In this document: positions 2,803-50,801 of the stretch, piece after piece
How positions within the stretch are numbered: the stretch's first letter is position 1
Layout of the letters: every line of letters begins with the position of its first letter
IMG/VR virus record: IMGVR_UViG_3300036945_001058
From: a virus
DNA: 64,000 nucleotides
Reading direction: 5' to 3' (one strand)
The notes under the pieces: generated by a model
Databases searched by the model: none
What the model saw: the letters and a program-made list of their open reading frames with translations, nothing else
Told to the model about the DNA's origin: nothing
Program-made: the position numbers and the translations under genes

Positions 2803-5800
2803 ATGAACTCTACATTATTAAAAAAATACGAAACTATCGACCAATCTAAAGTGTCTGAAAAAGATAAAAAAGTATTGGAACAAGTAAAAAAACTCACGAA
2901 TGGTTTCGAGGAAACAGATGAAGCGAAAAACAAAGTTGCCGAAAAGATTTTAGACCAAATCACAACATTGAATCCTGATGCTGTAAAAAAGCCTGAAGTA
3001 GTTGCTCAAAAAGTTTCTAAAGTACAAAAGGTGGTTAAAGCCAAAAAAGTAACGAAAGCAAAAAGCACTGCAACTACTCATAAAAACAGCCACAAGAACA
3101 CTCCTGCTCCTGCTCCTGCTCCTGCCTCTGCTCCTGCAAGTGCTAATACTGCTAAAGGTTCGGGCAATAACATAATGTCTGTTGCAAAAGAAATTCAAAA
3201 AACTGGAGAATCTTGGAAAGACGCTATAGAACGTGCTAAACAAGTTCTCAAAGACCGTAAAGAACAAGTTGTTGAAAAAAAGAAAACTGAATTACAGAAG
3301 CTTTTAGCACTTGTTAAAACTAAAAAAGAACTTCAAGGCTTTGCTAATTCCGATATTGATAGAGATTCACGTAGAACTGCTTTGCCAAGAGGTAGACGAC
3401 TTTCTAAAAATGGTAATACCTATTATGAAAATAGAGAGAACCGCACAGACAGACTTGCGCCTAATTACCCACAAGATATGCCTTTGTTGGCGAGTGGCGG
3501 TGAAACCGAAAAATACAAAGCAGGTCAAAAATTTTACGACACAAGATACGATAGAGTTTGTGAAATAGTTCCGTCTAACTACGATGGTTTGGTTACTTGG
3601 AAAAGGTATAATAAATCAGGAACGGAATTTGAAAATAACGAAAAACACTCGTTGGTTGAAAATCAATTTGATTATTTAGTAAATATGGGTGCTTATCAAA
3701 TTAGCAAACAACAAATGGCTGAAGGCGGTTCTGTTTCAAATGAAAGAATGTATAATTTCTTAACAGACGATTTGAATAAATTAGAAATTGCAATAAACGA
3801 AGGCGACAAAGAAGAAGTTGAAAGATTTTTTTCTTATTGGAGTTACCATTTAAAATCTCTTGAAAACAAAAGGTACGGTGAAAAATACGGCAGAATGTAC
3901 AATTTCTTAGAAGACGATTTAGGAAAATTAGAAAAAGCAATAAACGAAGGCGACAAAGAAGAAGTTGAAAGATTTTTTTCTTATTGGACTGGTAGTTCGG
4001 GTCATATAAAATCATTAAAAATGGCTAACGGCGGTTCTATAAATATGAATAAACATATTTGGGAGGGTTGGACTGTTGGGGGGTTTATCGAAGATTTAGA
4101 ACCTACATTTAATCAAATTATGACAGGAAGTTCTTGGCAAGAACCATTTAAAACCAAAGAAGAAGTTAAGAAATGGACTATGGATAACCAACCAAACTAT
4201 AAAAAAAATATTCCAGAAGTAGTAAATTATTTCTGGGCTAGGGTTCAAAGCAAAGAGAACTACGCTAACGGCGGTTCGGTTGGAAGTGGTAAAAACGGAT
4301 ATGTAGCCTTTTATAAAGGGAAACAAGTTGATGTTTATGCCGACACAAAATACGAAGCTCAAAAATTAGCTTCTCAACATTTTAAAGCTAAAAAAGATTA
4401 CGATGTAAATGTTGTTTTAGTAGAACTTGACGGAAAGCCTTATGTTAATAAGGCTAGTTTTGCCGATGGAGGAGAAACAAACGAATATACCTTAAATTAT
4501 AAAATTGAATTTACTACATCTGGTGAAGATTCTTATTTAGAAGGTAATGTAGGTGGAGATATTATGGATTTGAGTGATGTTAAAAATATTGATACTAATA
4601 AATATTCTGCAATAGCAAAAAGTTCTAGTGTAGCTTTTGAGGGGCTTAAAGGTCAGGAATTAGAAGATGAGATATACAATCAAATGAACGAAATGTTTGC
4701 TACAAATGACAGTATTGAAGTTGATTTAGAATCGGTCGAATTTAAAGGTAATAAATTTTCAGACGGCGGTTATTTTGATAAACTAGAAGACGTTAATTTT
4801 CTATTTGAAGTTGGAGAAAAAATAAAAATACCCCAAATGGAAAATGGAAAGTTAGAATTAGTCGATGCTGAAATTATAGAACAATACCCTGCCGAACAAA
4901 ATGACGGAACATATTATCCTTTTTATTATGTAAAAGGTTTGTGGAAAAACGCAGGTAAAATGCTTTATGATGAAGAAAAAATTTTAGAATACGGAAATAA
5001 AAATAAAAATTCTTTTGAACTTGGTGGAGCTTTTATGACTGATTTAGCAGGTCATACAGGAGGTTCTTTCGGAACAGGTAATCCGACAAATTTAGATAGT
5101 TTTTCAGGCACTAACTATACAGGTCTTGTTGGGGAAACTGGCGCAATGTCAAGCGGTGAATTATTTGAAAATGGCGGTGCTATGATACAAAACCAACAAG
5201 TAATTAATGATGCTTCTCAATCTTATGTTAATTACTACTTGGGAGATGGCGCAGGTCAAGGTAGTTATAAAAAAGGTGGTTCAATTCCAAACAATTACGA
5301 AGGAAGGACAGCGGATGATGTTTGGGGAAATTGGACAGAAAAACAAAGAAGCCACTTTCTTTTAGACCATAGCGAATTACTAGACAAGGATAGGCTTGAT
5401 AATAATTTAGGTTATACAAGGACAGTTCAAAAAGACAAAAAATTCACAGAACTAACTCCGCTTACAAAAAGAGTATTGGAATCTCATATTGGAAGCGGTC
5501 AATATGCTTACGGTGGCAAAATAAACGGCAACCTAAACAAAAAAATAAAATCTTTAGCCGAGAAAAAAGGAATAACTCCTGATGAATTAGGCATTGTCGA
5601 ATACAATAAAGCTATGACTCAAGCATTAGTGGAATCTTTAACTGATGCTAACTTTCACGATGAAGCAAAAGAAGTTATCTCCGCTATGGAGAAAAAAGAA
5701 TGGTCTGACGATTTGTATAAGTCGGTATATTTCAATCCTGATGAAAAAATAAGTTCTTTTGCTAGAGAAGTTGCGAGAGAATGTGAATGGGACGGAAATG

Positions 5801-8800
5801 ATATTATAAACGCCTATTTCTTTGTAACTAAAATGAATGGTTTAAAAGTTGGGTCTGTAATTGAAAATTTGTTTTTAAAAGCGAAGCCAACGAAAAGTGG
5901 TTTCGATGGAAACATAGAGTTTAACGTTGGCGATATTGTATGGCAAAAAGACGAAAGAGGATACGCTACCGTAATAAATAATTACGGCGACCCCATTAAT
6001 GGAAATTATGGAGACGTAAGGCTTGACTCAACAGGAAACACTGGGATTTACAGTCACGACTCAAAAAGGAAAACACCTGCCACAACAATAAATGCAACTG
6101 GTTATAATCTTATCAAATTAGGAGAAAAAGGAGACACAGGAAAGTTTACAACCGAAGTTCTTGCTAAAATGAAAGAAAGTGCAAATAGCCTTATTGATTA
6201 CAGAAAAAAAGCCAAAGACAAAGATGGTATTGTTTATTACCAAGAGGTTTACAAAAGGCTTCTCGATGGCGAGTTTGATTCAATGGTTAAAGGAACTTCA
6301 ACCCAAAAAAAATACATTGACCACGATGACATTAAAACCGTTACGGTAATGTATAAAGGCAAGCAAACCGTATTTAAAGGCGAGGACGTTCTTAACGGAG
6401 CAAACTTACTAGAAGATGGCGGAGACCTAAGTAAAATTGCTTTCTATATCGCTAAACGTGACGTAGTTTCTGTAGAGCTTAAAAACGGAGAAACAATAAA
6501 GCCTGCAAATGGATATTGGATTAAGAAAGGGGCAGAGCCTCTTTTTACCCCAAGCGGAACTCCAAAAAATAAAACGGACGAAAATAAAGCACATTTTCAA
6601 GCAGATGCTTTAGGGAATATTTTTGTAGATAGTAATTTTGTTAATCAATCTAAAGGTAATTTACCAAATTCAGAATTAAAGCATTATGGCTTTGGAGATT
6701 TTTATTTAGAAACTCCCGAAGGTAATATTGACTTTATTAGAACTTCTGAAGAAAAAGAAGGTTTTGTTGGTCGAACCCATAAATTAAAAGGTAGTAATGA
6801 ATTAATAAAGAAATTAATTGACGCTATGAAAGAAAAAGGCAGGTTTGACGATAATCAAACTTTTGCAAATGGAGGGTCTTTTGCTAAAGGTGGTGCTTTC
6901 AAACCTTACGGAAAAACAAAAGGAAGATACACAGTTAATTACACTGTAGATTCTGAAAAACAGTCTGAAATTTGGAACACAAGAGAAATGGCTGTGAATA
7001 ACGCTAAAAGATACGCTAAAATTGACGAATATTCAGATGTAATGGTTTTTGACGAAAACGGCAATGAAATTGATTTTTTAGTTGAAGTTTCTTTTGCTGA
7101 CGGTGGATTATTAAACAGTCGTCAAATCGAAAAACTAGATAATGGTTTTACAATTCCTCAACTTGACAAAATGTTAAGAGAAATGTTTCCTGATTCTTTT
7201 GGATTAGCTGTTTTTAAAAATGGTAAAAACCTACTTGATTACGATTATAAAGACAAAATAAAAGGCGATAAATTAAAGCTTTATTTCTACAACAAAAACT
7301 CTCGAAGAGATTTGAATTACGAGGTTCGTCAAGGGGAAGAAAATACATATTTTGATTTTAAGTTATTCGATGAAGAACAAAATACTTATACAGGTGGATT
7401 TGGATTTAAAGACGAGGGTGATGTGGACAAAAGTTATATAACCAAATTTCTTTCTTTTTTACAAGACGCTTATCATTATCCTTTCGAGGTAAAACATCTT
7501 GTAATGGCTAACGGTGGTGGTATTTCCGACTATGGGAACAGTCCAGAACTTAAATCTTTGATAGATAGACATGAAAAATTACATTTCGATGTTAAAAGCA
7601 AGATTGCAATAGCGGTTGGTCTTGACGATGCAATTTCTTTTTATGATGTAAATTTAAAAATTAATCCTTTCAGGTTTATTGAAAGAGCTGTCTATGGCGG
7701 TTTAATTTCGCTTGACGAAATAGACAAACAGCTAATCGATTCAGCAATGGAAGAAGCAGAGGATATTGATAGTGATGATGATTTGGACGAAATTGGTAGT
7801 AGCGACTTTACTTATTACTTGAAAAATGTTTTGGAAGATGCTGGCATTAAAGTTGGATTCGTAAGTGGTAGACTTCGTAGATTAAATGAAGATGGAAGCG
7901 TAAAAGAAATTAGTAATAATTTTGCTGAAGGTGGAGAAATAAGAAGATTCAATCGACACGAACAAATGGATTCTGAAACAAGAGAAGAAATTTTAGATAT
8001 TGTTTCTGACCCAAATTTAAACGGCACTTTAACTAATTACTTATATGGTTTATTTGACGGATACGATTATTCTGAAACAGAAAATTTTAAAAAAGAATTG
8101 AACAAGTTAAAATCAAAAGGTTTAGCTTTATACAGTAGAATAATTGATGTTTACGAAAAAATCGAAAAGTACAAATTTGAAAAGTATGATGAGTACGCTG
8201 ATGGTGGAATGTTTGAAGCTCCAATTGGTGTTCAAAGGGAAGTTAAGGGAAAATTAATTAGTGTTCCCACAACAGAGCAAATATCAAAATCAGAAGTTGA
8301 CAGATTTGTAGATTACGTTTATGAAGCTTATGAATCGTACGACCAAGAAGGTGTATATCAATTTACAAAACCACAAGTTAGAAAAGCAGTCAATAAATAT
8401 TTGACTCAATTAGAGTTTCAACCTACTTGGGGAGGTGGTGATAGTTTAGATAGAGAAAGAGTTTACGAATTTCTTATAAATCCGAAACTTGACGAAATTA
8501 AAAATCCAGTCTTCGCTAACGGTGGTTTTTTTGATAACAACGATGGTTTTATGGAAGCAAAAAACGGAAATAATTACCGTTATCCAGAAAGACCTGTTAA
8601 TATTGATGTTATTGACGAGCCGATTGATTTAACAAATAATGTTAGTAATCGCACAAATAAAGTTGTTATAAAACCAATTAGTGAAGATGTAGACATAACA
8701 GGGAATAACTTAAAAGCAAAGTTAGGTCATTACCAAAAAAACAGAACACCTGACAAAATGATTGCGGTAAATCCTAGAATGATTTTATATAATTTACCAA

Positions 8801-8832
8801 ACATTAATTATGAAGAACATAAAAATAACTAA
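2803..8832 (+). CDS. giant modular polyprotein 1 (18 [FYML]xxGG motifs), probable internal virion protein
   Basis: 2009 aa ORF. Motifs in order: LASGG, MAEGG, MANGG, YANGG, FADGG, FSDGG, FELGG, FENGG, YKKGG, YAYGG, LEDGG, FANGG, FAKGG, FADGG, MANGG, FAEGG, YADGG, FANGG. Confidence 0.75.
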   Translation: MNSTLLKKYETIDQSKVSEKDKKVLEQVKKLTNGFEETDEAKNKVAEKILDQITTLNPDAVKKPEVVAQKVSKVQKVVKAKKVTKAKSTATTHKNSHKNTPAPAPAPASAPASANTAKGSGNNIMSVAKEIQKTGESWKDAIERAKQVLKDRKEQVVEKKKTELQKLLALVKTKKELQGFANSDIDRDSRRTALPRGRRLSKNGNTYYENRENRTDRLAPNYPQDMPLLASGGETEKYKAGQKFYDTRYDRVCEIVPSNYDGLVTWKRYNKSGTEFENNEKHSLVENQFDYLVNMGAYQISKQQMAEGGSVSNERMYNFLTDDLNKLEIAINEGDKEEVERFFSYWSYHLKSLENKRYGEKYGRMYNFLEDDLGKLEKAINEGDKEEVERFFSYWTGSSGHIKSLKMANGGSINMNKHIWEGWTVGGFIEDLEPTFNQIMTGSSWQEPFKTKEEVKKWTMDNQPNYKKNIPEVVNYFWARVQSKENYANGGSVGSGKNGYVAFYKGKQVDVYADTKYEAQKLASQHFKAKKDYDVNVVLVELDGKPYVNKASFADGGETNEYTLNYKIEFTTSGEDSYLEGNVGGDIMDLSDVKNIDTNKYSAIAKSSSVAFEGLKGQELEDEIYNQMNEMFATNDSIEVDLESVEFKGNKFSDGGYFDKLEDVNFLFEVGEKIKIPQMENGKLELVDAEIIEQYPAEQNDGTYYPFYYVKGLWKNAGKMLYDEEKILEYGNKNKNSFELGGAFMTDLAGHTGGSFGTGNPTNLDSFSGTNYTGLVGETGAMSSGELFENGGAMIQNQQVINDASQSYVNYYLGDGAGQGSYKKGGSIPNNYEGRTADDVWGNWTEKQRSHFLLDHSELLDKDRLDNNLGYTRTVQKDKKFTELTPLTKRVLESHIGSGQYAYGGKINGNLNKKIKSLAEKKGITPDELGIVEYNKAMTQALVESLTDANFHDEAKEVISAMEKKEWSDDLYKSVYFNPDEKISSFAREVARECEWDGNDIINAYFFVTKMNGLKVGSVIENLFLKAKPTKSGFDGNIEFNVGDIVWQKDERGYATVINNYGDPINGNYGDVRLDSTGNTGIYSHDSKRKTPATTINATGYNLIKLGEKGDTGKFTTEVLAKMKESANSLIDYRKKAKDKDGIVYYQEVYKRLLDGEFDSMVKGTSTQKKYIDHDDIKTVTVMYKGKQTVFKGEDVLNGANLLEDGGDLSKIAFYIAKRDVVSVELKNGETIKPANGYWIKKGAEPLFTPSGTPKNKTDENKAHFQADALGNIFVDSNFVNQSKGNLPNSELKHYGFGDFYLETPEGNIDFIRTSEEKEGFVGRTHKLKGSNELIKKLIDAMKEKGRFDDNQTFANGGSFAKGGAFKPYGKTKGRYTVNYTVDSEKQSEIWNTREMAVNNAKRYAKIDEYSDVMVFDENGNEIDFLVEVSFADGGLLNSRQIEKLDNGFTIPQLDKMLREMFPDSFGLAVFKNGKNLLDYDYKDKIKGDKLKLYFYNKNSRRDLNYEVRQGEENTYFDFKLFDEEQNTYTGGFGFKDEGDVDKSYITKFLSFLQDAYHYPFEVKHLVMANGGGISDYGNSPELKSLIDRHEKLHFDVKSKIAIAVGLDDAISFYDVNLKINPFRFIERAVYGGLISLDEIDKQLIDSAMEEAEDIDSDDDLDEIGSSDFTYYLKNVLEDAGIKVGFVSGRLRRLNEDGSVKEISNNFAEGGEIRRFNRHEQMDSETREEILDIVSDPNLNGTLTNYLYGLFDGYDYSETENFKKELNKLKSKGLALYSRIIDVYEKIEKYKFEKYDEYADGGMFEAPIGVQREVKGKLISVPTTEQISKSEVDRFVDYVYEAYESYDQEGVYQFTKPQVRKAVNKYLTQLEFQPTWGGGDSLDRERVYEFLINPKLDEIKNPVFANGGFFDNNDGFMEAKNGNNYRYPERPVNIDVIDEPIDLTNNVSNRTNKVVIKPISEDVDITGNNLKAKLGHYQKNRTPDKMIAVNPRMILYNLPNINYEEHKNN
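3745..3987 (+). repeat. internal duplication (2 x 96 nt, period 147) encoding RMYNFLxDDLxKLExAINEGDKEEVERFFSYW
   Basis: 3745-3840 vs 3892-3987 are near-identical. Confidence 0.9.
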
Positions 8833-8850: not shown

Positions 8851-11800
8851 ATGAAGCTATTCGATAAAACAATAGACGAACAATTATTTAAACAATATGC
8901 ACTTGGTAGTGACCTCTCTAAACAAGAGGTTGTTGTTAAGATTTATAATCCTTTTGGAGCGGGAAGCTGGTATATATTAAATTCCGACCCGCAAGACCCT
9001 GATTACCTTTGGGCAATTGTTGATTTAGGCTATGGAGCAGAAGTTGGTTCTGTTAGTCGAAACGACCTAGAAAGTTATCGTGGTGAATTCGGGTTAGGAT
9101 TTGAACGAGATTTAGGTTTTGAACCTGTTAATGGAGAAGAACTCTTTAAAGGACTTCGTCAAGGTAAGTTTTACGCCAATGGTGGTGGGATTGATGATTA
9201 TTCTGATTTGTATGGTCAAGAAGTTATGGCTTTAAAAAACGCAAAAAATCAAGCGAAAAGAACGGGTTACGACTATCTTGTTTATTTGAAATAAGGAGAA
9301 ATTTCTTTTGCTCGTAAAAATGAATTTGAAAGATTCTTTGATAAAGAGGAGTGTAAAATACTATATACGATTGATGAAAAAGGAAATGCTGATAAAATCA
9401 AGTCTTATGATGAAGGCGGAAATGTTGAAGAATACAAACCTTATGTATTTTATTTCTATTACGATGGGAACGAAATGACCTTTAACACTTTAGAGAAAGC
9501 TCTTGAAGAAGCTAAACAATTAGGAGCAATGAAAGTTAGAGATGATTTAGGAGGAGAGTACTTTGTAAATTATGCTGACGGCGGAAACTTGTCAAGAGAC
9601 CAGAAATTCGTAAACAAAAGCGAAGATTATGAGGTAGAGTATTCAAAAGGCACGAATCGAAAAGGTTATGAAAAACATTCTTTTGCAGAAGGAGGAAACG
9701 TAAGACAATCTTTAGAAGATGTTTTGAAACAAGATGTTACTTTTTTAAAATTCGATAGTAATAGAGCTTACGATAAATTAGTTAGATTAAATATTCCGCT
9801 TATTAATGTTCACGATTATGATTTTAATCATTATACTATAATTGAAACTAAAAACCTTGAAAAAGTTTTAGAGTATGTAAAAAAAGGGGTAAGAATAGTT
9901 AAGAAGAAATTTGCATCGGCTGATTTGGGTTTTGACTACAGAGGGAGTATGAGTTTTGAAGATGGTGGAGATATTGATAATGAAATCTACGAAAAAAGAC
10001 TTCAATATTTAAAAATGATGAAGAACAATGAGCGTAGTGATTTGGGTAAATACCAAATAGATAAAGAAATTAAAAATATAAATATGATTTTAGAACATAG
10101 AAAAAACATAGAAAGTTCTTATTCTAATGGCGGAAATCTATTTAAAAACCTTAGTATTGAAAAACAAGAAGCAAGACAAAATCTTAAAGAAAACATTATA
10201 AAAGCATTATTTGTAGATAAAAAAAATCCAATCACAGAAGTTGCTTTAACCTATTCTAATTCTAAGTATTCAGTTCCTAATATTAATAAACAAGACATTA
10301 GAAATACGGTATGGGAGATAAACCAAACTAAAAAATATAAAAATATAATTGTTTACACTAATTCTTATGGCGTTTTGAGTTTAAAAGTAGAAAACAGCTT
10401 TGAAGAAGGTGGCTCTATCAAAAAAACAAGGCGAACAAATAACCAAATAAGAAAAGATAATTATAACAAGGAAGTTGATTTGTATAATTGGTACGTTGTT
10501 AATGTTGCAGAATTAAAAGCGGAATCAGGATTTGAACACAAAGAAGATGCACTTGATTTGCTTTCGGACTATGATGGTGATAAAAACTTTAAGGTAGTTT
10601 CTAAAAAATCTTTAAAAACTTTAGGAATTGAAATACCTAACGAAAGATGGAAATATGCTAATGGTGGAAGTTTTGACGATGATTTTGACGGAATTGCTTA
10701 TGCTAAAACCAAAGGAAAAGAAAGTATCGACTGGGATAAGGAATTAAAAGAATATGCTGGCGAAAAAGAATATCAAAGATTGACTCCACGAGAAAAAGAA
10801 GAAATAATTTCTGACCTACAAAGAGATTGGGATAGGTCTAATTCCTATGCTAATGGAGGAAACATAATAAAACCAAAAGTAGGAGATACGATATTTAGAG
10901 CTTACTACGTTAAGGATTACGATGGCGAACATTATAATGCAATTATTATAGCTGAAAACGCTGAAAAAGCCGAAGAAAAAGCAAGGTCAATCTACAAGGA
11001 TGATTTTTCTTTTATAAGTGATGGCATAAAAATAAAGAACGAAGAACAATTGTTTGAAGAAACAAGAGAAGACGAGCCAGTTTATAATTGTGAAAAAGGA
11101 GAAGAAATGAACGCAAAAGATTTAACTAATAAAGAAGTTTATGAGCAAATTGTGTCGAAAGTAGGTAATAGTATTTGGGAACAAAATGCTTTAAATATAC
11201 TAAGGAATGAATCGGTAAAGAACCCTGATGGCGTATTTAAACCTACAGGAGATTTAGACAAGTTGCAAAAGTATCTATCCAATAGTAATTACTATGAAAA
11301 AGGCGGAGAAATTGCCAAAGCAGAAATTCTCGGTTTCAGTAAAAACATAATGGGAACTACTGATATTGAAATGAGAATAACAGGAATGAGAAAACCTCAA
11401 AACTTCATTGTTTATCCAATAGGCAAAGACGATGCTGGAAGTGTTATTACAATCCAATCAGAAACAAGAATAGGTCAAATTAACTTGGTAAAAGGGGTTG
11501 GTGTAATGAGCCAAAGTCATTCAAGCGGGGCTTATTTTGTTCACTTACAAATGGATAAACTAACTCCTTTCACATTAAGCGAAAGCGACTTGGAAGACCT
11601 AAAAACAAGCGTTTTTAAAACTTCTGGTTCTAACGTTGGGTCTTCTATTGTAAAATCTGATAATTCAGGGGCTTCAAGGATTTTAGCCAAAGGTGGCGAC
11701 TTAGGCAAATACGAAGGCGGTAAGAATTTTGAAATTAGAGACTACAAAATGCTAAATATAGATGATGTTTTAGAGAGAGAAAAACCTATAAAATTATACA

Positions 11801-14799: not shown

Positions 14800-14855
14800 G
14801 AACCCTCAATTTAATATAAAACTAGGCATTAAATACCTGCTTATTATTTTTTTAT

Positions 14856-14863
14856 TATATTTG
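14856..14863 (+). promoter_or_regulatory. Bacteroidota-type -7 promoter element TATATTTG
   Basis: Matches TAnnTTTG; intergenic, about 35 nt before ATG 14897. Confidence 0.6.
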
Positions 14864-14896
14864 TCATTAAAATTAACCTTATAAAAGTCATAACTT

Positions 14897-38619: not shown

Positions 38620-38621
38620 TT

Positions 38622-38837: not shown

Positions 38838-38841
38838 CAAT

Positions 38842-39405: not shown

Positions 39406-39412
39406 TAAAAAA

Positions 39413-40348: not shown

Positions 40349-40401
40349 TCGGATTATATACTGGTTTTAATTTTTTTTTAACCTAATAAAAAAAATAAAT
40401 A

Positions 40402-40764: not shown

Positions 40765-40832
40765 TAATTGGAATAGTCTAACAATAAAATATTTTTAAAT
40801 TAAATTTTATTTTAAAAAGGAAATTAATTTGT

Positions 40833-40840
40833 TATTTTTG
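40833..40840 (+). promoter_or_regulatory. -7 promoter element TATTTTTG
   Basis: TAnnTTTG match about 30 nt before ATG 40869. Confidence 0.5.
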
Positions 40841-40868
40841 ACAAAGAAACCATTTAAACTAAAACGCT

Positions 40869-41264
40869 ATGATTGAGGGAATTGTTGAGAAAATTATGAT
40901 GACTGGAATTAATAAATATGCAAAAGCATACGAAACATCAAATGATAATATACAAATTAAAGTAACTGATAATAAAAATGGAACTGTTTTATACACTATT
41001 TGCAACGACTTTAAAGATGTAGAAAATATTTCTTTTTTAAATATAATGGATAAAAAAATAGATTTTTTAGGGTACGAGGCATTGGCTTCTCCTTTTTTAA
41101 AAAAGGCATTAGAAATATTTGCTAAAGAATTAAATTGCGAAGTATCAAACGTTAGTTGCTTTATAATGAAGCATAAAAAAACAGTTGGCTTGGCTTTTTA
41201 TAATCAATTTAAAAACGGTAAAAATATCCTAATTGGCGAACAATTAAAAGAATTAGGATTATAA
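40869..41264 (+). CDS. hypothetical protein
   Basis: 131 aa ORF. Confidence 0.65.
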   Translation: MIEGIVEKIMMTGINKYAKAYETSNDNIQIKVTDNKNGTVLYTICNDFKDVENISFLNIMDKKIDFLGYEALASPFLKKALEIFAKELNCEVSNVSCFIMKHKKTVGLAFYNQFKNGKNILIGEQLKELGL

Positions 41265-41279
41265 ATTTATAATTAAAAT

Positions 41280-41585
41280 ATGGCATTACAAAAAACACAT
41301 CTCAATTCAAAAGACACGGTCGAAGTAAACGTTTCAGACATAACATGGATTAAAAATAACATATCTTCTATGAATGAGAAGATTCAAGAAGTAAATACTT
41401 CATTAGTTAAACTAAATCAAACCGTTATTGGAGATAAAACCTATGGTCAAATAGGATTAATAGAAAAAGTTGAAGAACATAATAGATATATAGAAAAAGA
41501 CAAAGATTTCAAATCGAAAATAATAGGAGGTGGCTTAGTAATCTCTTTTGTTTGGGCATTAGTGGTTAAGTTTTTTAAATTTTAA
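41280..41585 (+). CDS. coiled-coil protein with C-terminal TM (holin-like architecture)
   Basis: GLIEKV...IIGGGLVISFVWALVVKFF. Confidence 0.6.
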   Translation: MALQKTHLNSKDTVEVNVSDITWIKNNISSMNEKIQEVNTSLVKLNQTVIGDKTYGQIGLIEKVEEHNRYIEKDKDFKSKIIGGGLVISFVWALVVKFFKF

Positions 41586-44191: not shown

Positions 44192-45010
44192 ATGAAAAAG
44201 ATTTTTTTTAATTCCTCCCTACCCCGTGCTGGGTCAACGTTAATTTCCAATTTAATTGCTCAAAACCCAGATTTTTATTGCACCCCTACCTCTGGACTAG
44301 CGGATTTGATATTAAACGCAAAAAACACTTATGCTCATTCACAAGCAATTTTAGCTCAAGACAAAATAGTTATGGAAAACGCTTTTTTGGGGTTTTGCAG
44401 AGCTGGTATGCAAGGTTTTTTTAATAACATTACCACAAAAGAATTTATTTTAGACAAAAGCAGAGAATGGAGTATTCACTATAACCTTTTAAATATGCTA
44501 AACGAAAACCCTAAAATCGTTTGTATGGTTAGAGATGTTCGTTCTGTTTATTCTTCAATGGAAAAAAACTTCCGAAAAAATCCACATAGGGAAAATCACA
44601 TTCAAAATGCACCGCAGTTAGTCGGCACTACATTAGATAAAAGAATAAATATTTGGGCAGATGGAATACCAGTTGGTGTTTCAATGGACAGATTAAAAGA
44701 CTGCATTCAGCAAGGTATAGCAAAAAAAATGTTGTTTATAAGGTATGAAGATTTAATGGTAAACCCAGAAATCGAAATGAAGCGTTTGTACGAGTATTTA
44801 GGCTTACCTTACTACGAAGCACACGATTTTGAAAATGTATCTCAATTAACCCACGAAAACGACCTTGTTCACGGTATCTACGGCGACCATACGTTAAGGC
44901 ACAAGTTTGAAATGAAACCAGACGACTATTATGATGTTTTAGGGTATGAATTATCCAATAAAATTAAGAATACCTATAAGTGGTTTTACGACTATTTCGG
45001 ATACGTTTAA
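44192..45010 (+). CDS. sulfotransferase
   Basis: SSLPRAGSTL (5'-PSB loop), DKSREW, MVRDVRSVYSS (3'-PB). Confidence 0.85.
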   Translation: MKKIFFNSSLPRAGSTLISNLIAQNPDFYCTPTSGLADLILNAKNTYAHSQAILAQDKIVMENAFLGFCRAGMQGFFNNITTKEFILDKSREWSIHYNLLNMLNENPKIVCMVRDVRSVYSSMEKNFRKNPHRENHIQNAPQLVGTTLDKRINIWADGIPVGVSMDRLKDCIQQGIAKKMLFIRYEDLMVNPEIEMKRLYEYLGLPYYEAHDFENVSQLTHENDLVHGIYGDHTLRHKFEMKPDDYYDVLGYELSNKIKNTYKWFYDYFGYV

Positions 45011-45017
45011 TATTTAT

Positions 45018-45779
45018 ATGATTTTTTTATTTACAGGGCAACCCCACGCAGGTAAGACAACATTAGCTAGATATTTACACTCTTTTTTATTAGAAAACTC
45101 AATAAAAAATACATTTTTAATCGATGGAGATGATTTGAGAAAAATAAATAATAATAAAGATTATTCGGAGCAAGGGCGTAGAAGCAACATAACCCAAGCG
45201 TTCTCAATAGCAAAATATTTAGATTCTTTAAACCACGATGCAATTATAGCTTTAGTTTCTCCTTACAAAGATATGAGGGAAGAACTAAAAGCAAATTCAA
45301 ACGTAGTTGAAGTTTATGTACACACTACAGAAAGAAGAGGTAGAGAGGGTTTTCACGTTGAAAATTATGAACCACCTACTGAAAACTACATCAATATAGA
45401 TACTACTGATGTAGATGAATTATCGTCTATGAACGAACTATTTAATCACATTCAAAAATTCATTAAAATGCCACCAGAAAAAAACGAGTTAAGCAAGTTA
45501 GATTCCGTTCAAAAATTCATCCTCGAAGGTAGAGAAGTCGTGCTGAAAAAAGAAGATGAAACTTCTTTTGTCCGCATATATAACAACAATTCAGCCACGC
45601 AATCTTCTGAAAAATGGTTGTTAATCATAAATGGTAATAAGTTTCATACAAGTGAAGTAAATATAAACTGCCGAACAAGAACCTTTACAGGTAAATTTGA
45701 AGATATGGATATTGAAAATCACATAGTTTGCGATGCAAATGAAGTAAAATTCAAAAACAACATAGCTACTATAATCTAA
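45018..45779 (+). CDS. cysC: adenylyl-sulfate kinase with C-terminal extra domain
   Basis: Likely start is ATG 45018; FTGQPHAGKTT, LIDGDDLR, DYSEQGRRSNI, LVSPY, YEPP. Confidence 0.8.
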   Translation: MIFLFTGQPHAGKTTLARYLHSFLLENSIKNTFLIDGDDLRKINNNKDYSEQGRRSNITQAFSIAKYLDSLNHDAIIALVSPYKDMREELKANSNVVEVYVHTTERRGREGFHVENYEPPTENYINIDTTDVDELSSMNELFNHIQKFIKMPPEKNELSKLDSVQKFILEGREVVLKKEDETSFVRIYNNNSATQSSEKWLLIINGNKFHTSEVNINCRTRTFTGKFEDMDIENHIVCDANEVKFKNNIATII

Positions 45780-45821
45780 ACAAGAACAAGAAAAAACAAC
45801 AATAAATTAAAACTAAAAATT

Positions 45822-46151
45822 ATGGATTTTATAACAGATAAGACAATTTCAAGCGAGGAATACGAGAAGTTAAGAAGCGATAGTTTAGAATTGCAACTAC
45901 TTAAAAACCATAAGTCAGTAAGTTACAAGAGACATCTTTCAAAAACTATTAGTTATAGAGTTTTAGGTTCTTTTCAGACTTTTTTGATTTCATATTTTAT
46001 CACAGGTGATTTTTTGGTTGCGGGTAGTGTCGGCTTGACCGAAATTTGTATTAAGCCAATTGTATATTTTCTTCACGAAAGAGCTTGGTACAAATTATCA
46101 GATTATGGAATTTATATTAAAAAAATACAGATTAACAAAACCACAAAATAA
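45822..46151 (+). CDS. DUF2061-like membrane protein
   Basis: RHLSKTISYR...K...YFLHERAW. Confidence 0.75.
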   Translation: MDFITDKTISSEEYEKLRSDSLELQLLKNHKSVSYKRHLSKTISYRVLGSFQTFLISYFITGDFLVAGSVGLTEICIKPIVYFLHERAWYKLSDYGIYIKKIQINKTTK

Positions 46152-46185
46152 AAAACAAAAATCATAATTAAAAAAAACAAGAAAC

Positions 46186-47061
46186 ATGTCAACAATAATA
46201 TTTTCTATCGAGGGTGGTCTTGGAAAGTCAATAATGGCTACCGCAGTATTAAAAGCAATTAAAAAACAATATAAAAAGTCAAATATCATTGTTATTACTG
46301 CTTATCCCGATGTTTTTATCGCTAATCCAAACGTGAATAAAGTTTTAAAATTCGACCAGTTAAACGGAATTTACGAAAAAAACATTATGAATAATAAAGA
46401 CTGTAAAGTTTTTGTTGCAGACCCTTACCATACTTCGGATTTCATCACAGAAAGTAAACATCTGATTCAAATTTGGTGTGAAATGTATGGTGTAAAATAT
46501 GATGGCGAAATGCCAGAATTGTTTTTGCTTAAAGCAGAAAAAGAATACTTTGAGCCTTTTTACAGATTGGATAAGCCTATTATGGCAATTCAACCAAACG
46601 GAGGTGCGATAAATCAACCTTTAAAATATTCTTGGACAAGAGATATTCCTGCTCCAATAGTAGAGGAAGTGATTGAGTGCTTTAAAAACGATTACGCTAT
46701 TTTGCATATAAAAAGGGAAGACCAAATAGCATATCCAAACACACTTCAAGCCCTTGATAACTTCAGAAGTATTGCGGTTTTATTAATTATGTCGAAAAAA
46801 AGATTATTGATTGATAGTAGTGCAATGCACATAGCGACTGCTTTGAATTTACCTTCAAATGTTGCTTGGATAGGTACAAATCCTAAAGTTTTTGGTTACG
46901 ATATTCATACAAATATTGTTGCGAACCAACCGACCAGAGAGCTTGATTTAAACCACTCACATTATCAAAAACATTTGTTGTTTCAAGATATTAGCACAAT
47001 TCCTTATAATGATTTAAGCGAAGTTTTTGATAAAAAATTGATAATTAATTCTTTGAAATAA
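46186..47061 (+). CDS. glycosyltransferase, GT9-like
   Basis: EGGLGKSIMATAVLKAIKKQY, IDSSAMHIATAL. Confidence 0.75.
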   Translation: MSTIIFSIEGGLGKSIMATAVLKAIKKQYKKSNIIVITAYPDVFIANPNVNKVLKFDQLNGIYEKNIMNNKDCKVFVADPYHTSDFITESKHLIQIWCEMYGVKYDGEMPELFLLKAEKEYFEPFYRLDKPIMAIQPNGGAINQPLKYSWTRDIPAPIVEEVIECFKNDYAILHIKREDQIAYPNTLQALDNFRSIAVLLIMSKKRLLIDSSAMHIATALNLPSNVAWIGTNPKVFGYDIHTNIVANQPTRELDLNHSHYQKHLLFQDISTIPYNDLSEVFDKKLIINSLK

Positions 47062-47117: not shown

Positions 47118-47621
47118 ATGGAGGATTTAGAATTAACAGATACAATAAGGCAAGGAATTGTTTTTAAAGCGGACGGTTCAAACTTTATGGAGCAACTAGA
47201 GTGTATTGAAAATTTGTTAATTAGCAGTAATTCATCAGATATAATTATAGGCAATTCAGACGAGTTGCCTTTAACTCATTCTTTTTCTGATGGCATATAT
47301 GTCAGAGAGATTTTTATTCCAAAAGGAATGTTTGCAATTGGAAAGGTTCATAAACTGAATCACACTTTCTTTTTAATGAAAGGAAAAATGCTGTTGTATA
47401 GCGAAAGAGGTGTAGAGGAGATTGAAGCTCCTTATTATGGAAATTCAAGTGCGGGAACAAAAAGACTTGTTGTCGCTTTAGAAGATATGGTCTTTGTAAA
47501 TGTATTTCCAAATCCAAACAATATAAAGGAAGTAGACAAATTAGAAGATATATTTTATGCTTCTTCTTATGAAGATTTTCAGAATTATAAATCGTTAAAA
47601 AAACAATTATGTCAGGAATAG
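47118..47621 (+). CDS. cupin-fold protein
   Basis: HSFSDGIYVREIFIP...GKVHKLNH...GTKR. Confidence 0.7.
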   Translation: MEDLELTDTIRQGIVFKADGSNFMEQLECIENLLISSNSSDIIIGNSDELPLTHSFSDGIYVREIFIPKGMFAIGKVHKLNHTFFLMKGKMLLYSERGVEEIEAPYYGNSSAGTKRLVVALEDMVFVNVFPNPNNIKEVDKLEDIFYASSYEDFQNYKSLKKQLCQE

Positions 47622-47956
47622 CGGTAGCAGGGATAGCTGTGTCGGTTGGAATGGGTTTTTTTTCTGCGGAATCAGCAAAAAAACAGTCTGAAAAACAAAT
47701 GGCTCAATTATGGAATCAAGAAACTATGAAAATAGCTTCTCAAGAAAAACTTTTTCTGGAGCAAATTCGCACTGAAAACGAAACAGAGCTTATCAAAATA
47801 TTTTCAGAAGATATGTTGAAATATCGAGAAGCTTTACAAAAAGAAAGTACAATTAGACTTCGTGATACTTGGATTTATGTCGCTGGTCTTGGTGCTGGGA
47901 CAAGTGCTATATACGCCGTTTCTTTAATGTATTCCAAATCAAAAACAAATGGATAG
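47609..47956 (+). CDS. virion membrane protein (Gly/Ala-rich N-terminus)
   Basis: MSGIAVAGIAVSVGMG; C-terminal hydrophobic segment. Confidence 0.65.
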   Translation: MSGIAVAGIAVSVGMGFFSAESAKKQSEKQMAQLWNQETMKIASQEKLFLEQIRTENETELIKIFSEDMLKYREALQKESTIRLRDTWIYVAGLGAGTSAIYAVSLMYSKSKTNG

Positions 47957-48338
47957 TATTTTTTTTAATGTTGGAGGTGAAAGCGTAGCAAGTGGTAGTA
48001 CTAGCGGAATAGCTGGGTATAGCGATGTAATTAAGATTGTTGCCGATTTAGGGATTCAGTATTTGTACGCTAAAAAAGAAAAAAAAAAATACGAAGAGTT
48101 AATCCAACGAATAAGCGAGCTTAATACTCAAGAAAAGGAAAAGTTAAAAAAACTTTTAGAAAAGTCTCTAAATGAAGTTGCTAAAACGCAAGTGATAATT
48201 GAATTTCTTAACGAAAAAAAAATAAATGATTTAGAAGCTGAAACTAAAAAAAAGAGAATTGTATCTTTAATTGCGTTAGGCATTGGGGTAATTATAATGG
48301 GATTAATGTTTTATAAATTAAATAAGCAAAATGGATAA
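47949..48338 (+). CDS. membrane protein starting MDSIFFNVGG
   Basis: FFNVGG motif; C-terminal TM. Confidence 0.7.
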   Translation: MDSIFFNVGGESVASGSTSGIAGYSDVIKIVADLGIQYLYAKKEKKKYEELIQRISELNTQEKEKLKKLLEKSLNEVAKTQVIIEFLNEKKINDLEAETKKKRIVSLIALGIGVIIMGLMFYKLNKQNG

Positions 48339-48684
48339 AGAAACGAAGACGGTTATAGTGTCAATTGGAATTGCATTAGTAATTCTTTGGATTTTTAAAC
48401 CAAAAAACAGCACTAATAGCGACTCTAAAACAGACGATGTGTTAGTCGATAAGTATCAAGCACCTAGATTAGTTGCTGAAGATGAAAAAAAATTAAAAGA
48501 CGAAGCAGTGGTTGGATTAAAAGCAATGCGTGAAGCTATTAATAACGGAGAGTCGGCAAGGGAATTAGATAAACTGAAAAATGTAATTTTACAAGAAAAC
48601 AGCATCAAGATTATGATTTCTAAAAAAACCAAGAAGTTAAGAGCGATGGATAAAAAAGGAGAAGTAATTGCTGAAGAAGAATAG
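48331..48684 (+). CDS. N-terminally anchored protein
   Basis: VIVSIGIALVILWIF. Confidence 0.7.
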   Translation: MDKETKTVIVSIGIALVILWIFKPKNSTNSDSKTDDVLVDKYQAPRLVAEDEKKLKDEAVVGLKAMREAINNGESARELDKLKNVILQENSIKIMISKKTKKLRAMDKKGEVIAEEE

Positions 48685-48686
48685 TT

Positions 48687-49154
48687 ATGGCGGGTTTGTA
48701 TGCACCAGTAGTTACTTCATATCCAAAAGGAGTATTTTCAATAACAAGCAACAAAGGAACTCCATACCCTTTGATACAAGAGTCTATGGGTAGTTACCAA
48801 TACCGTATAGATGAAATTTATTTACAAGCAAATACGGCACAACAATTATTTCAGCCTATAAGCTTTAGGAGTTATGATGCTAATGGAACTGTAAATATTG
48901 TTGTAGATGTTATAACTATCAATCCTTATCAGAAACAAAACTCACTTTTTATAAAGCCTGTAAATAAAAATCTAATTCTCGATGGGCGTACATCTATAAA
49001 GTTTGATTTACTACCAAATGAAGAACAAAACATGGTCTTTTTTACTACCGAACAGTCAAATGATTACGGTTTAAAAGAACCAAATTTCTTTGACGATTAT
49101 TTTTTTAAACAACAACAAGACGATTTTTTTAATGGGTTTGTCGAGCAAGTTTAA
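48687..49154 (+). CDS. paralog of the capsid candidate (minor or second capsid protein)
   Basis: YLQANTAQQLFQ...DANG...TINPYQKQ...LDGRTSI aligns with YIQSATTNQVLQ...DANG...TIDPYQQQ...IDGFTKI. Confidence 0.65.
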   Translation: MAGLYAPVVTSYPKGVFSITSNKGTPYPLIQESMGSYQYRIDEIYLQANTAQQLFQPISFRSYDANGTVNIVVDVITINPYQKQNSLFIKPVNKNLILDGRTSIKFDLLPNEEQNMVFFTTEQSNDYGLKEPNFFDDYFFKQQQDDFFNGFVEQV

Positions 49155-49611
49155 TAGGTTGGGTCTTTATAAATTAAAGATTGAGAACAGAAGTCAAATA
49201 GTGTCTAAACTAAAAACAGGAGACACAATTACAACAAAATCCACATTAATACCTCTTTACGTTCACTACGGAATAATTGAGAGAATTGAAGACGAGATAT
49301 TTATAGTGCATTTACATCCAAATAAAGTTAATTCTAGTGGGGGTAATTTAATTAAAGAACCTTTAACTAAATGGCTTGTAGGAGGTAGAGAAATTGTTTC
49401 AATTCAAGAAACAAATTTAGATTCAGCTACACTAGACCAACTTTATAAAGATTTAAAAGAACAAAAATACGACCCTATTAATTACAACTGTGAGCATTTT
49501 GTCAATTTTGCAAAAGGAGATTATTTTGTTAGCAGACAAGTGATTAGATATACAGGAATACTTTTAATAGGTGTTTTTGTATATTATTTGATAAAAAATA
49601 AAAAAATATAA
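49132..49611 (+). CDS. LRAT/PLAAT-like H-box/NC protein (permuted papain-like NlpC/P60) with C-terminal TM
   Basis: VHYGII...VHL...YDPINYNCEHFV; likely start is ATG 49132. Confidence 0.75.
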   Translation: MGLSSKFNRLGLYKLKIENRSQIVSKLKTGDTITTKSTLIPLYVHYGIIERIEDEIFIVHLHPNKVNSSGGNLIKEPLTKWLVGGREIVSIQETNLDSATLDQLYKDLKEQKYDPINYNCEHFVNFAKGDYFVSRQVIRYTGILLIGVFVYYLIKNKKI

Positions 49612-49613: not shown

Positions 49614-50801
49614 ATGAGTGCATCAATTAGTTCTACAATAGCCCTTAATGTTCAAAACAATACTAATTTACCGCAAAATGTAAATTTATTAGGTGGAACT
49701 CAAGATGCTTCAAGTGTTCCTCCGAGTACGCTTTACGAATATGATTTATCAGGGGAAAATTATACTGGAATAGCAAATGCAAATATTATTATCTCTAATA
49801 CAGCAAATCCAACGCCTGTAACATATACTGTTCAAGTTAATGGTGGTAATATTCAATCCTTAGCCATTGCCTTTAACACGCTTAATCAAGGTCTTTTTCA
49901 ATCAAACGGCAATACGCTTTATGTTTCTTCGGATTATTATATTTATTCAAATATAAGTATTTCTGGAAGTTCTGTTTTCGGAACAACTGATTCACAACCA
50001 CAAGCAATAACAATTGATTCAGTAGGTAATATTTACACAGCAAATAGCGGAAGCGATAATATAAGCAAAATAACACCTCTTGGAGTATCGACTATTTTAG
50101 GAACATCTGGTTCACAACCAAGAGGAATAACAATTGATTCAGTAGGTAATATTTATACAGTAAATTCATTTTCGGATGATGTAGTTAAAACAACACCTTT
50201 AGGAGTATCTACTATTCACGGAATAACTGGAAGTAATCCTTTTGGGATTACAATAGATAGTTCAGGAAATATTTACACTTCAAATTACAATTCTAGTGAT
50301 GTAAGTAAAATTACACCTCTTGGAGTATGTACTATTTTAGGAACAACTGGAAGTAATCCTGCTGGGATTACAATTGATTCGTTAGGTAATATTTATACTG
50401 CAAACGCTGGAAGCAATAACGTAAGTAAAATTACACCTCTTGGGGTATCCACTATTTTAGGAACAACTGGAAGTAATCCTTTTGGGATTACAATAGATAG
50501 TTCAGGAAATATTTACACTTCAAATTACAATTCTAGTGATGTAAGTAAAATTACACCTCTTGGAGTATCTACTATTTTAGGAACAACTGGAAGTAATCCT
50601 GCTGGGATTACAATTGATTCGTTAGGTAATATTTATACTGCAAACGCTGGAAGCAATAACGTAAGTAAAATTACACCTCTTGGGGTATCCACTATTTTAG
50701 GAACAACTGGAAGTAATCCTTTTGGGATTACAATTGATTCATCAGGTAATATTTATACAGCAAATAGTGGAAGTGATGATGTTACGGTAATCGTTCAATA
50801 A
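49614..50801 (+). CDS. vertex/spike candidate: beta N-terminal domain plus 7 x 40-aa NHL-type propeller repeats
   Basis: P.GITIDS.GNIYT.N.....VSKITP repeats. Confidence 0.75.
   Translation: MSASISSTIALNVQNNTNLPQNVNLLGGTQDASSVPPSTLYEYDLSGENYTGIANANIIISNTANPTPVTYTVQVNGGNIQSLAIAFNTLNQGLFQSNGNTLYVSSDYYIYSNISISGSSVFGTTDSQPQAITIDSVGNIYTANSGSDNISKITPLGVSTILGTSGSQPRGITIDSVGNIYTVNSFSDDVVKTTPLGVSTIHGITGSNPFGITIDSSGNIYTSNYNSSDVSKITPLGVCTILGTTGSNPAGITIDSLGNIYTANAGSNNVSKITPLGVSTILGTTGSNPFGITIDSSGNIYTSNYNSSDVSKITPLGVSTILGTTGSNPAGITIDSLGNIYTANAGSNNVSKITPLGVSTILGTTGSNPFGITIDSSGNIYTANSGSDDVTVIVQ
49981..50800 (+). repeat. 120-nt tandem units, including a near-perfect 240-nt duplication
   Basis: Units start at 49981, 50101, 50221, 50341, 50461, 50581 and 50701; 50221-50460 matches 50461-50700. 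Confidence 0.9.

Follow-up and report, generated by a model that had tools for sequence, protein, structure and literature searches.

Predicted features of tailless, membrane-containing jelly-roll viruses in a mainly freshwater virus lineage with genomes of 62-137 kb

Introduction

What kind of particle would a virus build whose late genes are crowded with small membrane proteins and include no recognisable tailed-phage gene? The question is raised by the IMG/VR virus record IMGVR_UViG_3300036945_001058, of which we analysed a stretch of 64,000 nucleotides (the window, by which we mean this whole stretch). The initial annotation, made from the letters alone, had proposed a very large, tailless, lipid-containing, Varidnaviria-like virus of Bacteroidota. 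The best explanation that we can offer is that the window comprises the morphogenesis arm and the beginning of the replication arm of an uncultured virus whose genome has at least 100 kb and which belongs to a widespread, mainly freshwater lineage. That this virus is tailless, contains a membrane and has a jelly-roll capsid is the reading that we favour, with moderate confidence. It draws on the predicted folds of two conserved proteins, the lack of tailed-phage families and a local enrichment of membrane proteins.

Results

The window and its relatives

Every open reading frame (ORF) of at least 100 amino acids (aa) between positions 1 and 50801 lies on the plus strand, except an HNH homing endonuclease gene (25221-26390) and a few short ORFs nested in larger plus-strand genes. 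The single-strand morphogenesis block described by the initial annotation is therefore real, and it is followed by a converging arm:

51022-64000, minus strand: replication/recombination arm with RecT (9.2e-39), RNase H (8e-51), an HNH endonuclease and DNA methyltransferases

By its gene content this second arm appears to be a virus-like replication and recombination module. The G+C content of the window is about 30% throughout, the window holds no tRNA gene, and a megablast search with 50 kb of it against 50,697 phage records gave no match at the DNA level.

Because the 364-aa protein of the window (22451-23545) has an identical counterpart on a contig of 117,987 bp, the window would be about half of its own genome, and this contig is probably its own. 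The genomes of relatives range from 62 to 137 kb, so the genome of more than 64 kb that had been proposed is, if anything, an understatement. Three relatives were particularly useful. G005, an IMG/VR relative, has 102,228 bp and runs collinear with the window, whose first base corresponds to G005 base 32,606; it extends 32.6 kb further upstream. The 132,486-bp contig G010:C9 (JBBAJS010000009.1, from a Sediminibacterium metagenome-assembled genome, MAG) is also collinear and adds 42.5 kb upstream and 21.7 kb downstream; its G+C content is even (0.31-0.35), and the 21.7 kb by which it prolongs the minus-strand arm carry DNA polymerase and replication-initiator families. G002 (67,810 bp, rated complete) is a more distant relative with which the window has its core genes in common.

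A predicted B204-like packaging ATPase

The following genes make up the centre of the block:

22451-23545, plus strand: 364-aa universal protein, candidate assembly or packaging partner, upstream of the ATPase gene and present in about 55 related loci
24393-25208, plus strand: 271-aa FtsK-HerA-superfamily ATPase for genome packaging, B204/A32-like by predicted structure, Foldseek and VIA-align
25221-26390, minus strand: HNH homing endonuclease (PHROG HNH families down to 4.6e-43), between the ATPase and capsid-candidate genes
28581-28706, plus strand: 41-aa ORF with a single transmembrane segment (residues 3-27), immediately ahead of the jelly-roll gene; relatives have a 41-aa gene call in this position
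28762-29457, plus strand: 231-aa single jelly-roll protein, best major-capsid candidate by predicted fold, conservation and gene order

At the sequence level the ATPase gives only weak P-loop, DUF87/HerA (Pfam) and Sll1717-type matches, together with a match to the C-terminal part of a PHROG profile annotated 'terminase large subunit'. Its AlphaFold2 model, built from an alignment of 59 homologues, has a mean predicted local distance difference test (pLDDT) value of 88.0 and a predicted template modelling score of 0.84. When this model was compared with the PDB using Foldseek, ranks 1-15 were all occupied by B204 of STIV and STIV2 (E 3.5e-9 to 1.8e-7), with TM-scores of 0.62-0.71 normalised to the length of B204, followed by a complex of SIR2 with HerA (1.6e-6) and by the N-terminal domain of Zot (2.5e-6). 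Exhaustive comparison with VIA-align likewise placed B204 first (Z 18.2, root mean square deviation 2.6 A, 185 of 204 residues aligned), above DndH-C (16.4), HerA (15.9), VirB4 (15.7), TrwB (13.1) and FtsK (11.0); HerA, VirB4, TrwB and FtsK matched as parts of larger proteins, whereas B204 matched over nearly its whole chain. Sequence identity to B204 is 16-19%, and no terminase was among the top 50 matches of either structure search. Beyond the protein's own clusters, its neighbours in the ESM Atlas are viral ATPases of 186-204 aa, some of which are tagged Pox_A32; DUF87 and Zot tags occur too. Since B204 heads two structure searches and the protein has the size of a single domain, its model identifies it as a minimal FtsK-HerA-superfamily ATPase of the B204/A32 kind. 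The A32/FtsK-HerA-type packaging ATPase of the initial annotation is thus supported at the level of the predicted fold, and it stands closer to B204 than to the conjugative and HerA ATPases.

Direct searches added little. A tblastn search with the ATPase and the jelly-roll protein against the 50,697 phage records returned nothing significant, the best hits being Zot genes at E 0.2, and when the PDB was searched with sequences and profiles of the two families, P-loop noise was all that came back.

The closeness of HerA, VirB4 and TrwB just under B204 (Z 13-16) raises the question of whether the locus is viral at all: a conjugative or other mobile element could use a HerA/VirB4-like ATPase, a transglycosylase and membrane proteins as its transfer apparatus, and the SLT domain, DUF2958 protein and many small membrane proteins described below do recall type IV secretion loci. 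The ATPase, however, has 271 aa where VirB4 has about 800, no relaxase or coupling-protein family turned up in any scan, and the contigs are free-standing, 62-137 kb long and even in G+C content. The window's RecT, RNase H, HNH endonucleases, methyltransferases and lysins and the tRNAs of relatives are virus-type genes, of which RecT, the homing endonucleases, the lysins and the tRNAs fit a lytic virus, and the jelly-roll gene is extremely conserved and transcribed in lake metatranscriptomes. We therefore regard a non-viral element as very improbable.

The surroundings of the ATPase gene differ between relatives. In G002 the gene of the 364-aa protein overlaps the ATPase gene, the HNH endonuclease is missing from the corresponding place, and the jelly-roll gene starts about 310 bp past the end of the ATPase gene. 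In the window this interval (25.2-28.7 kb) is packed with extra genes. It also holds duplications: 28089-28212 repeats 28737-28860, the 5' end of the jelly-roll gene (91% identity), which is why the 79-aa ORF at 28114-28353 begins like the jelly-roll protein (E 4e-7), and 27926-28061 repeats 28214-28349 (82%). The 364-aa protein had been considered as a double jelly-roll candidate and was dropped, its family consensus being rich in E, K and P and looking helical or disordered.

A single jelly-roll protein as capsid candidate

The 231-aa protein encoded at 28762-29457 is the product of the most conserved gene of the lineage, with 61-65% identity where the ATPase has about 50%. The best 120 database clusters are 81-95% identical to it, and an exhaustive search recovered 570 clusters at 50% identity. 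A model built from 96 diverse homologues (pLDDT 88.3) begins with a helix (residues 2-17), which a disordered linker connects to one beta-sandwich (about 50-215). Its structural matches include coat proteins of comoviruses, picornaviruses and nepoviruses, as well as the vertex proteins P31 of PR772 and PRD1, P1 of PM2 and A223 of STIV, and chains from PBCV-1 and phiCjT23; BFVD, the ESM Atlas and a repeat search of the PDB gave generic beta-sandwich matches only. We conclude that the predicted fold is a jelly roll, as the initial annotation required of its capsid candidates, and a single rather than a double one. In relatives the gene lies closely behind the ATPase gene, and the protein may well form the shell.

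A second member of the family lies about 20 kb downstream:

48687-49154, plus strand: 155-aa jelly-roll paralogue, vertex (penton) candidate, matched by the family profile at E 4.7e-14

The same profile recognises the 231-aa protein itself at E 2.9e-87, which bears out the earlier claim of two paralogous beta proteins of about 150 and 230 aa. Each full-length relative holds exactly one copy with about 231 aa and a second with about 150 aa, and by analogy with known viruses the 155-aa paralogue is probably located at the vertices.

Further forms occur in the family. G005 encodes a 397-aa protein (L086:17225-18418) made up of two tandem jelly-roll domains (E 8e-45 and 2e-42), apparently a natural fusion of the single into a double jelly roll inside the lineage, and two more short paralogues (L086:6650-7174 and 14648-15112); several database clusters (P0250, P0284, P0315, P0341) also show two matched stretches. 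Among the conserved core genes no double jelly-roll candidate was found, the 397-aa tandem being confined to one relative, and the Pfam models of PRD1 P3 and of the capsid of nucleocytoplasmic large DNA viruses gave no match in a comparison whose controls were uninformative.

The products of other core genes do not qualify as capsid candidates:

20919-21566, plus strand: PAP2-family lipid phosphatase, core gene (Pfam PAP2 1e-12, via the homologue of relatives; 41-42% identity in all distant relatives)
33358-34143, plus strand: conserved 261-aa protein with a HExxH zinc-protease motif (HEFSH), 48-53% identity in distant relatives, no family match
46186-47061, plus strand: 291-aa protein with a faint glycosyltransferase-9-like signal (sub-threshold NCBIfam heptosyltransferase, E 0.008; 43% identity in L004 and L005)

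The first is a PAP2 phosphatase and the third has a faint glycosyltransferase-like signal; the second had been considered as a candidate and was dropped for its protease motif.

It might be argued that the virus lacks tailed-phage genes and that the 231-aa protein is nevertheless not its shell. The jelly-roll family would then supply vertex, spike or cement proteins, and the capsid would be an unrecognised ORF with a double jelly roll or a new fold, or the particle would be pleomorphic or enveloped. The top structural matches do include vertex/penton proteins, a cement protein and TNF/C1q-like fibre heads, several large ORFs have no assigned fold, and one relative has the 397-aa tandem fusion and three further paralogues, because of which the family appears to be used in several roles. 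The universal forms, however, are only those of 231 and about 150 aa; a receptor-binding protein would not usually be 81-95% identical across many clusters; none of the other conserved core proteins looks rich in beta structure, the 364-, 261- and 291-aa proteins having other likely roles; and the order and closeness of the ATPase and jelly-roll genes in relatives resemble those of P9 and P3 in PRD1. We consider this alternative unlikely and retain the 231-aa protein as the shell candidate.

Sequence words of the jelly-roll gene were found in 23 metatranscriptome runs from 19 studies, and transcripts of relatives were assembled in freshwater metatranscriptomes of several studies. In three runs the longer placeable contigs fell mainly on 28.5-29.6 kb; because the runs had been picked by the jelly-roll gene, these contigs indicate transcription in relatives and not its rank in expression.

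Search for tailed-phage genes

In the window, scans with Pfam and PHROGs turned up no family of terminases, portals, HK97 capsids or tape measures, and families of tube or sheath proteins were not found either. No terminase, portal, HK97 capsid or tail gene was detected by PHROG scans of the large ORFs of G002 and of the 32.6 kb that G005 adds upstream, nor in 45 ORFs of G010:C9 outside the part homologous to the window, among the best 25 of 87 PHROG families matched. The same scans of the three relatives did find glycosyltransferases, a MoxR-type AAA ATPase, a DNA polymerase and a replication initiator. Six-frame searches of five relatives rated complete with Terminase_6N, TerL_ATPase, TerL_nuclease, Phage_portal and Phage_capsid were negative, and control genomes were positive. 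At the profile level, then, the hallmark genes appear to be absent from the window, from collinear relatives beyond both of its ends and from the five complete-rated relatives, which extends what the initial annotation had noted for the window.

Two matches carry the names of tail proteins. One belongs to the following gene:

47118-47621, plus strand: 167-aa adhesin-like protein (PHROG matches at 1.7e-27 to 'short tail fiber protein' and at 2.4e-20 to 'tail fiber adhesin', over nearly the whole of these short profiles)

Judged by the profiles that it matches, this protein would be a receptor-binding module and not evidence of a tail. The other is PHROG 1259, 'baseplate hub subunit and tail lysozyme', which matches one of the 73 scanned ORFs at 7.7e-28; three candidate ORFs for it had no relative in the PDB, and the match probably reflects a lysozyme domain.

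These names belong to the case for a very divergent tailed phage (Caudoviricetes) whose HK97 capsid, portal, terminase and tail genes lie beyond profile detection. IMG/VR and the Atlas file relatives under Uroviricota, by automatic labels, the PHROG of the ATPase is annotated as a terminase large subunit, and ORFs of 450-590 aa have no known fold. Yet the ATPase is a 271-aa protein devoid of a nuclease domain and resembles B204 rather than terminases; the five hallmark Pfam families and the PHROG scans were negative in the window and in relatives of 68-132 kb, with positive controls; tape-measure, tube and sheath families were not found; and membrane proteins are as dense as in PRD1. Of the two tail-named matches, the placed one is a short adhesin-type domain and the unplaced one probably a lysozyme. 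A tailed phage in disguise therefore seems quite unlikely to us.

Enrichment of membrane proteins

Transmembrane segments were called in ORFs of at least 40 aa by a Kyte-Doolittle mean of at least 1.6 over a 19-residue window. By this rule 39 of the 76 plus-strand ORFs have one hydrophobic segment, distributed as follows and compared with G005 and PRD1 (ORFs with one transmembrane-like segment):

Window, 14.8-49.7 kb: 38 of 68
Window, first 14.8 kb: 0 of 7
Window, minus strand: 1 of 24
G005, homologous block: 35 of 81
G005, upstream 32 kb: 1 of 43
PRD1, plus-strand genes: 14 of 28

This is a genuine and conserved local enrichment, and it equals that of PRD1, the model phage with an internal membrane. 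The initial annotation had counted about 50 membrane-anchored ORFs; the enrichment holds, and the number becomes 39 under our length limit, shorter ORFs having been included before. Of the ORFs in the block, 17 carry the segment at the N-terminus and another 17 at the C-terminus. The share of such ORFs, equal to that of PRD1, and the presence of a PAP2 phosphatase among the core genes are indirect signs that the virus may have an internal lipid membrane. The densest part is the following:

29553-41585, plus strand: dense run of small, mostly single-pass membrane proteins by their transmembrane segments; those at 29553, 31255, 33024, 36895 and 37498 are conserved in relatives

Within this run the neighbouring ORFs at 31707-32114 and 32133-32558, each with one transmembrane segment, arose by recent duplication (95% identity between 31769-31885 and 32120-32236), and the array therefore grows at least partly by tandem duplication.

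Other genes of the late block

The remaining assigned genes of the block are:

2803-8832, plus strand: giant 2009-aa protein, probably a structural polyprotein, matched only by two small PHROGs of unknown function
8851-9294, plus strand: DUF2958 protein (Pfam DUF2958 1e-13; 49-58% identity in distant relatives)
9475-14799, plus strand: second giant protein, 1774 aa, with the same GG motif
15601-16314, plus strand: SLT-like lytic transglycosylase with one transmembrane helix, residues 81-100 (Pfam SLT 1.1e-4, PHROG endolysin 3.8e-5)
16981-17274, plus strand: 97-aa core protein, 60-63% identity in distant relatives
17275-17967, plus strand: GH108 muramidase with a C-terminal membrane anchor, residues 198-216 (Pfam Glyco_hydro_108 1e-10, PHROG endolysin 4e-9)
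18139-18567, plus strand: CarboxypepD_reg-like protein (SusC N-terminal type) with a C-terminal transmembrane helix (PF13715 3.5e-12, placed via an annotated 143-aa homologue in relatives)
41596-43620, plus strand: 674-aa repeat protein, spike or fibre candidate, with at least 19 tandem 45-nt (15-residue) repeats and a weak beta-roll family match
44192-45779, plus strand: sulfotransferase and APS kinase pair (Pfam Sulfotransfer_3 1.4e-17, APS_kinase 8.7e-16)
49132-49611, plus strand: small protein with a C-terminal transmembrane helix, residues 136-155
49614-50801, plus strand: NHL/SBBP beta-propeller, vertex or receptor-binding candidate (Vgb_lyase 1.5e-24, SBBP 2.4e-23, NHL 1.2e-20), with six 120-nt repeats

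The two giant proteins share a motif, [FYML]xxGG, that occurs 18 times in the 2009-aa protein, against 2.7 expected and a maximum of 9 in 2000 shuffles, and 16 times in the 1774-aa protein, against 1.5 expected and a maximum of 7 in 2000 shuffles; in both it is mostly F/Y-A-N/D/E-G-G. The 1774-aa protein has no family match in Pfam or PHROGs. Proteases of adenoviruses, African swine fever virus and poxviruses cleave core polyproteins at Gly-Gly-type sites, and the motif suggests that the giant proteins are proteolytically processed; no cysteine protease that would match cleavage at such sites was identified in the window.

Several assignments of the initial annotation hold up here: the virion-type peptidoglycan enzymes correspond to the GH108 muramidase and the SLT-like protein, both membrane-anchored, the spikes have candidates in the 674-aa repeat protein and the beta-propeller, and the SusC-type domain lies at 18139-18567. 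The sulfotransferase, APS kinase and glycosyltransferase-like genes at 44192-47061 suggest sulfated or glycosylated components of the virion or the host surface; relatives have further glycosyltransferases upstream. As regards the putative holin/endolysin/spanin cassette of the initial annotation, three small ORFs with transmembrane segments lie at 47609-48684, where no endolysin was identified. A Pfam LRAT match (2.6e-5) was found in one of the 73 scanned ORFs; it may belong to the gene at 49132-49611, which had been described as LRAT/NlpC-like.

Host and habitat

Only 2 of 99 ORFs are preceded by a Shine-Dalgarno core, and the 15 bases upstream of start codons are 58% A. The motif TAnnTTTG occurs 1.9 times per kb between genes and 0.75 times per kb inside them (2.5-fold), with eight intergenic copies lying 36-138 nt ahead of a start codon. 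The collinear 132-kb contig was binned with a Sediminibacterium MAG and one short contig with an uncultured Bacteroidetes MAG. The A-rich starts lacking a Shine-Dalgarno core, the TAnnTTTG motif and the SusC-type domain on which the initial annotation had based a Bacteroidota host are all present; the assignment itself draws on indirect evidence, and a member of the Bacteroidota is our best guess. DNA runs that contain this stretch come from shale-gas metagenomes, among which may be the source sample, and from freshwater metagenomes.

Further observations on gene content and contig ends

The 5'-open ORF at positions 1-1136 of the window is the end of a 528-aa protein, preceded in a short matching contig (L016:20-3024) by the gene of a 470-aa MoxR-type AAA ATPase; this gene pair is kept in G002, G005 and G010. 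The HNH endonucleases at 25221-26390 and 55545-56120 are related (a 60-nt stretch is 77% identical), and G010:C9 has at least two HNH genes elsewhere. Genes for tRNA-Pro, tRNA-Gln and tRNA-Leu lie near one end of G010:C9 (L107:12035-12276). The ends of the G002 contig (L009:1-123 and L012:7688-7810) form a 123-nt inverted repeat that consists of a tRNA-Leu(AAG) gene and about 40 nt in opposite orientation, which may represent genuine termini or may result from the assembly having broken off at an inverted copy of the gene.

Discussion

Taken together, the three points on which the initial annotation could have been refuted, namely the searches for tailed-phage genes, the fold of the capsid candidate and the placement of the ATPase, all turned out, as far as they could be followed, in favour of the large tailless, lipid-containing virus that had been proposed, with the tailless lipid virion itself the part that we infer. 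In the model that we propose, the late plus-strand genes would supply a shell of the 231-aa single jelly-roll protein with the 155-aa paralogue at its vertices, by analogy with PRD1, STIV and P23-77. This shell would form round a vesicle of host lipid bearing about 40 virus-encoded single-pass membrane proteins, whose membrane the PAP2 phosphatase and similar lipid enzymes could tune. The B204/A32-like ATPase, placed at one vertex, would pump the genome into the preformed particle, and the giant GG-motif proteins would be cut into internal or cementing proteins. Attachment and entry could involve the membrane-anchored muramidase and transglycosylase, the repeat-rich spikes and the beta-propeller, the host presumably being a member of the Bacteroidota.

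Several observations weigh against this reading. The capsid role, the membrane and the missing tail are all read from sequence and models, and about 54 kb of the window's own genome are covered via relatives only. In one of the two structure comparisons, B204 stands ahead of HerA-type proteins by no more than about 2 Z units, and the Pox_A32 Pfam model did not match the ATPases of relatives, so that by sequence the protein appears to fall outside this Pfam family. All structural matches of the jelly-roll model, with Z 5-6.6 and TM-scores of 0.2-0.4, are of a weak and generic kind, modules that bind carbohydrate and fibre heads of the TNF/C1q type are mixed among them, and the top 50 lists show no specific link to capsid proteins of Helvetiavirae or to double jelly-roll capsid proteins; because the matches are weak and mixed, the fold can be called a jelly roll and no particular family can be named. 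Several large ORFs are still without an assigned fold, one of 452 aa in the window and two, of 586 and 529 aa, in the upstream parts of relatives. Comparison of the ATPase and jelly-roll profiles with 30 SSIP-1 proteins by hmmsearch and hhalign reached at most 6% probability, over the Walker A motif only, and hhalign against P9, P31 and P3 of PRD1 and profile searches of PRD1 indicated no relation. As for the host, binning is unreliable here, distant family members having been binned, on short contigs, with Planktophila, Bathyarchaeia and Chlamydiales.

If the favoured reading is correct, a freshwater lineage with genomes of 62-137 kb extends several-fold the size range of bacterial tailless membrane-containing viruses, which have been thought small, and genomes now filed automatically as tailed phages would mean that part of the Caudoviricetes of aquatic viromes is misclassified. 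The family is large, with its 570 capsid-candidate clusters and its metatranscriptome runs from 19 studies, and we found no description of the lineage in the literature. A possible Sediminibacterium host would offer an entry point for isolation. It is conceivable, though we regard it as doubtful, that the lineage represents a new high-rank group of bacterial viruses in which one small single jelly-roll protein forms an icosahedral, membrane-lined shell for 100-137 kb of DNA, polyproteins mature at Gly-Gly sites as in adenoviruses and African swine fever virus, and tandem fusions are nascent double jelly rolls. Such a group would be a living model for the scale-up of a single jelly-roll shell and for the origin of the double jelly roll. 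The lineage bears on the relation of single to double jelly-roll capsids that underlies the 2025 split between Varidnaviria and Singelaviria.

In its predicted functional design the lineage is like known tailless membrane-containing viruses. Among these, PRD1 (Tectiviridae) offers a parallel in gene arrangement, with its capsid gene close behind the ATPase gene and a small transmembrane-protein gene directly before the capsid gene: the order P9, P20 (42 aa), P3 recalls, by analogy only, that of the ATPase, the 41-aa ORF and the jelly-roll gene here. The share of membrane proteins is equal, and both have a virion-type muramidase and transglycosylase. Unlike PRD1 and other Bamfordvirae, however, the lineage has no conserved double jelly-roll protein. 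Tectiviridae, moreover, have linear genomes of some 15 kb that end in inverted terminal repeats, and they encode a terminal protein and a family B polymerase primed by protein; the genomes here have 62-137 kb, neither protein was identified in them, and an inverted repeat at the contig ends was seen in one relative, G002. Metagenomic prokaryotic double jelly-roll viruses likewise have genomes of 7-18 kb (PMC5894146). STIV and STIV2 provide, in B204, the best structural match of the ATPase, and STIV is tailless and icosahedral with an internal membrane, but these viruses are archaeal, have a double jelly-roll capsid and have only the ATPase gene in common with the lineage. The STIV genome is about 17 kb long.

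To our knowledge, no tailless membrane-containing phage described so far has a larger genome than SSIP-1, which infects Salisaeta, a member of the Bacteroidota/Rhodothermota lineage. SSIP-1 has a PRD1-type architecture with two types of capsid protein (PMC6356626). Its giant structural protein gp43 (2319 aa) invites comparison with the 2009-aa protein described here, by analogy only. Its genome, however, is circular, 43,788 bp long and from a hypersaline environment, whereas the genomes of our lineage, 1.4 to 3 times that size, are mainly from freshwater.

The Helvetiavirae (Halopanivirales), which include P23-77 and IN93 of Thermus and the haloarchaeal SH1 and HCIV-1, are tailless viruses with an internal membrane, as is predicted for the lineage studied here. 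Both have a pair of related genes for single jelly-roll proteins, which in our lineage are candidate capsid proteins, along with a packaging ATPase of the A32/FtsK-HerA type and numerous small membrane proteins. They differ in that the two capsid genes of Helvetiavirae are adjacent and both build the lattice, whereas the paralogues here lie 20 kb apart and have 231 and 155 aa, and in that Helvetiavirae have far smaller genomes and infect Thermus and haloarchaea. The largest of their genomes, that of HCIV-1, has about 31 kb. Neither P23-77- nor SH1-type capsid proteins were among the top 50 structure matches of the jelly-roll model, and similarity at the sequence level was not found either. Viruses whose capsid proteins are single, vertical jelly rolls now form the new realm Singelaviria, split by the ICTV from Varidnaviria in 2025 (PMC12714852). 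Of the Varidnaviria-like affiliation given in the initial annotation, the type of packaging ATPase stands, and the capsid candidate, as a single jelly roll, moves the virus nearer to Singelaviria. Since a single jelly roll is conserved in the lineage and no conserved double one was found, the nearest known kind is Singelaviria/Helvetiavirae-like rather than Varidnaviria in the strict sense.

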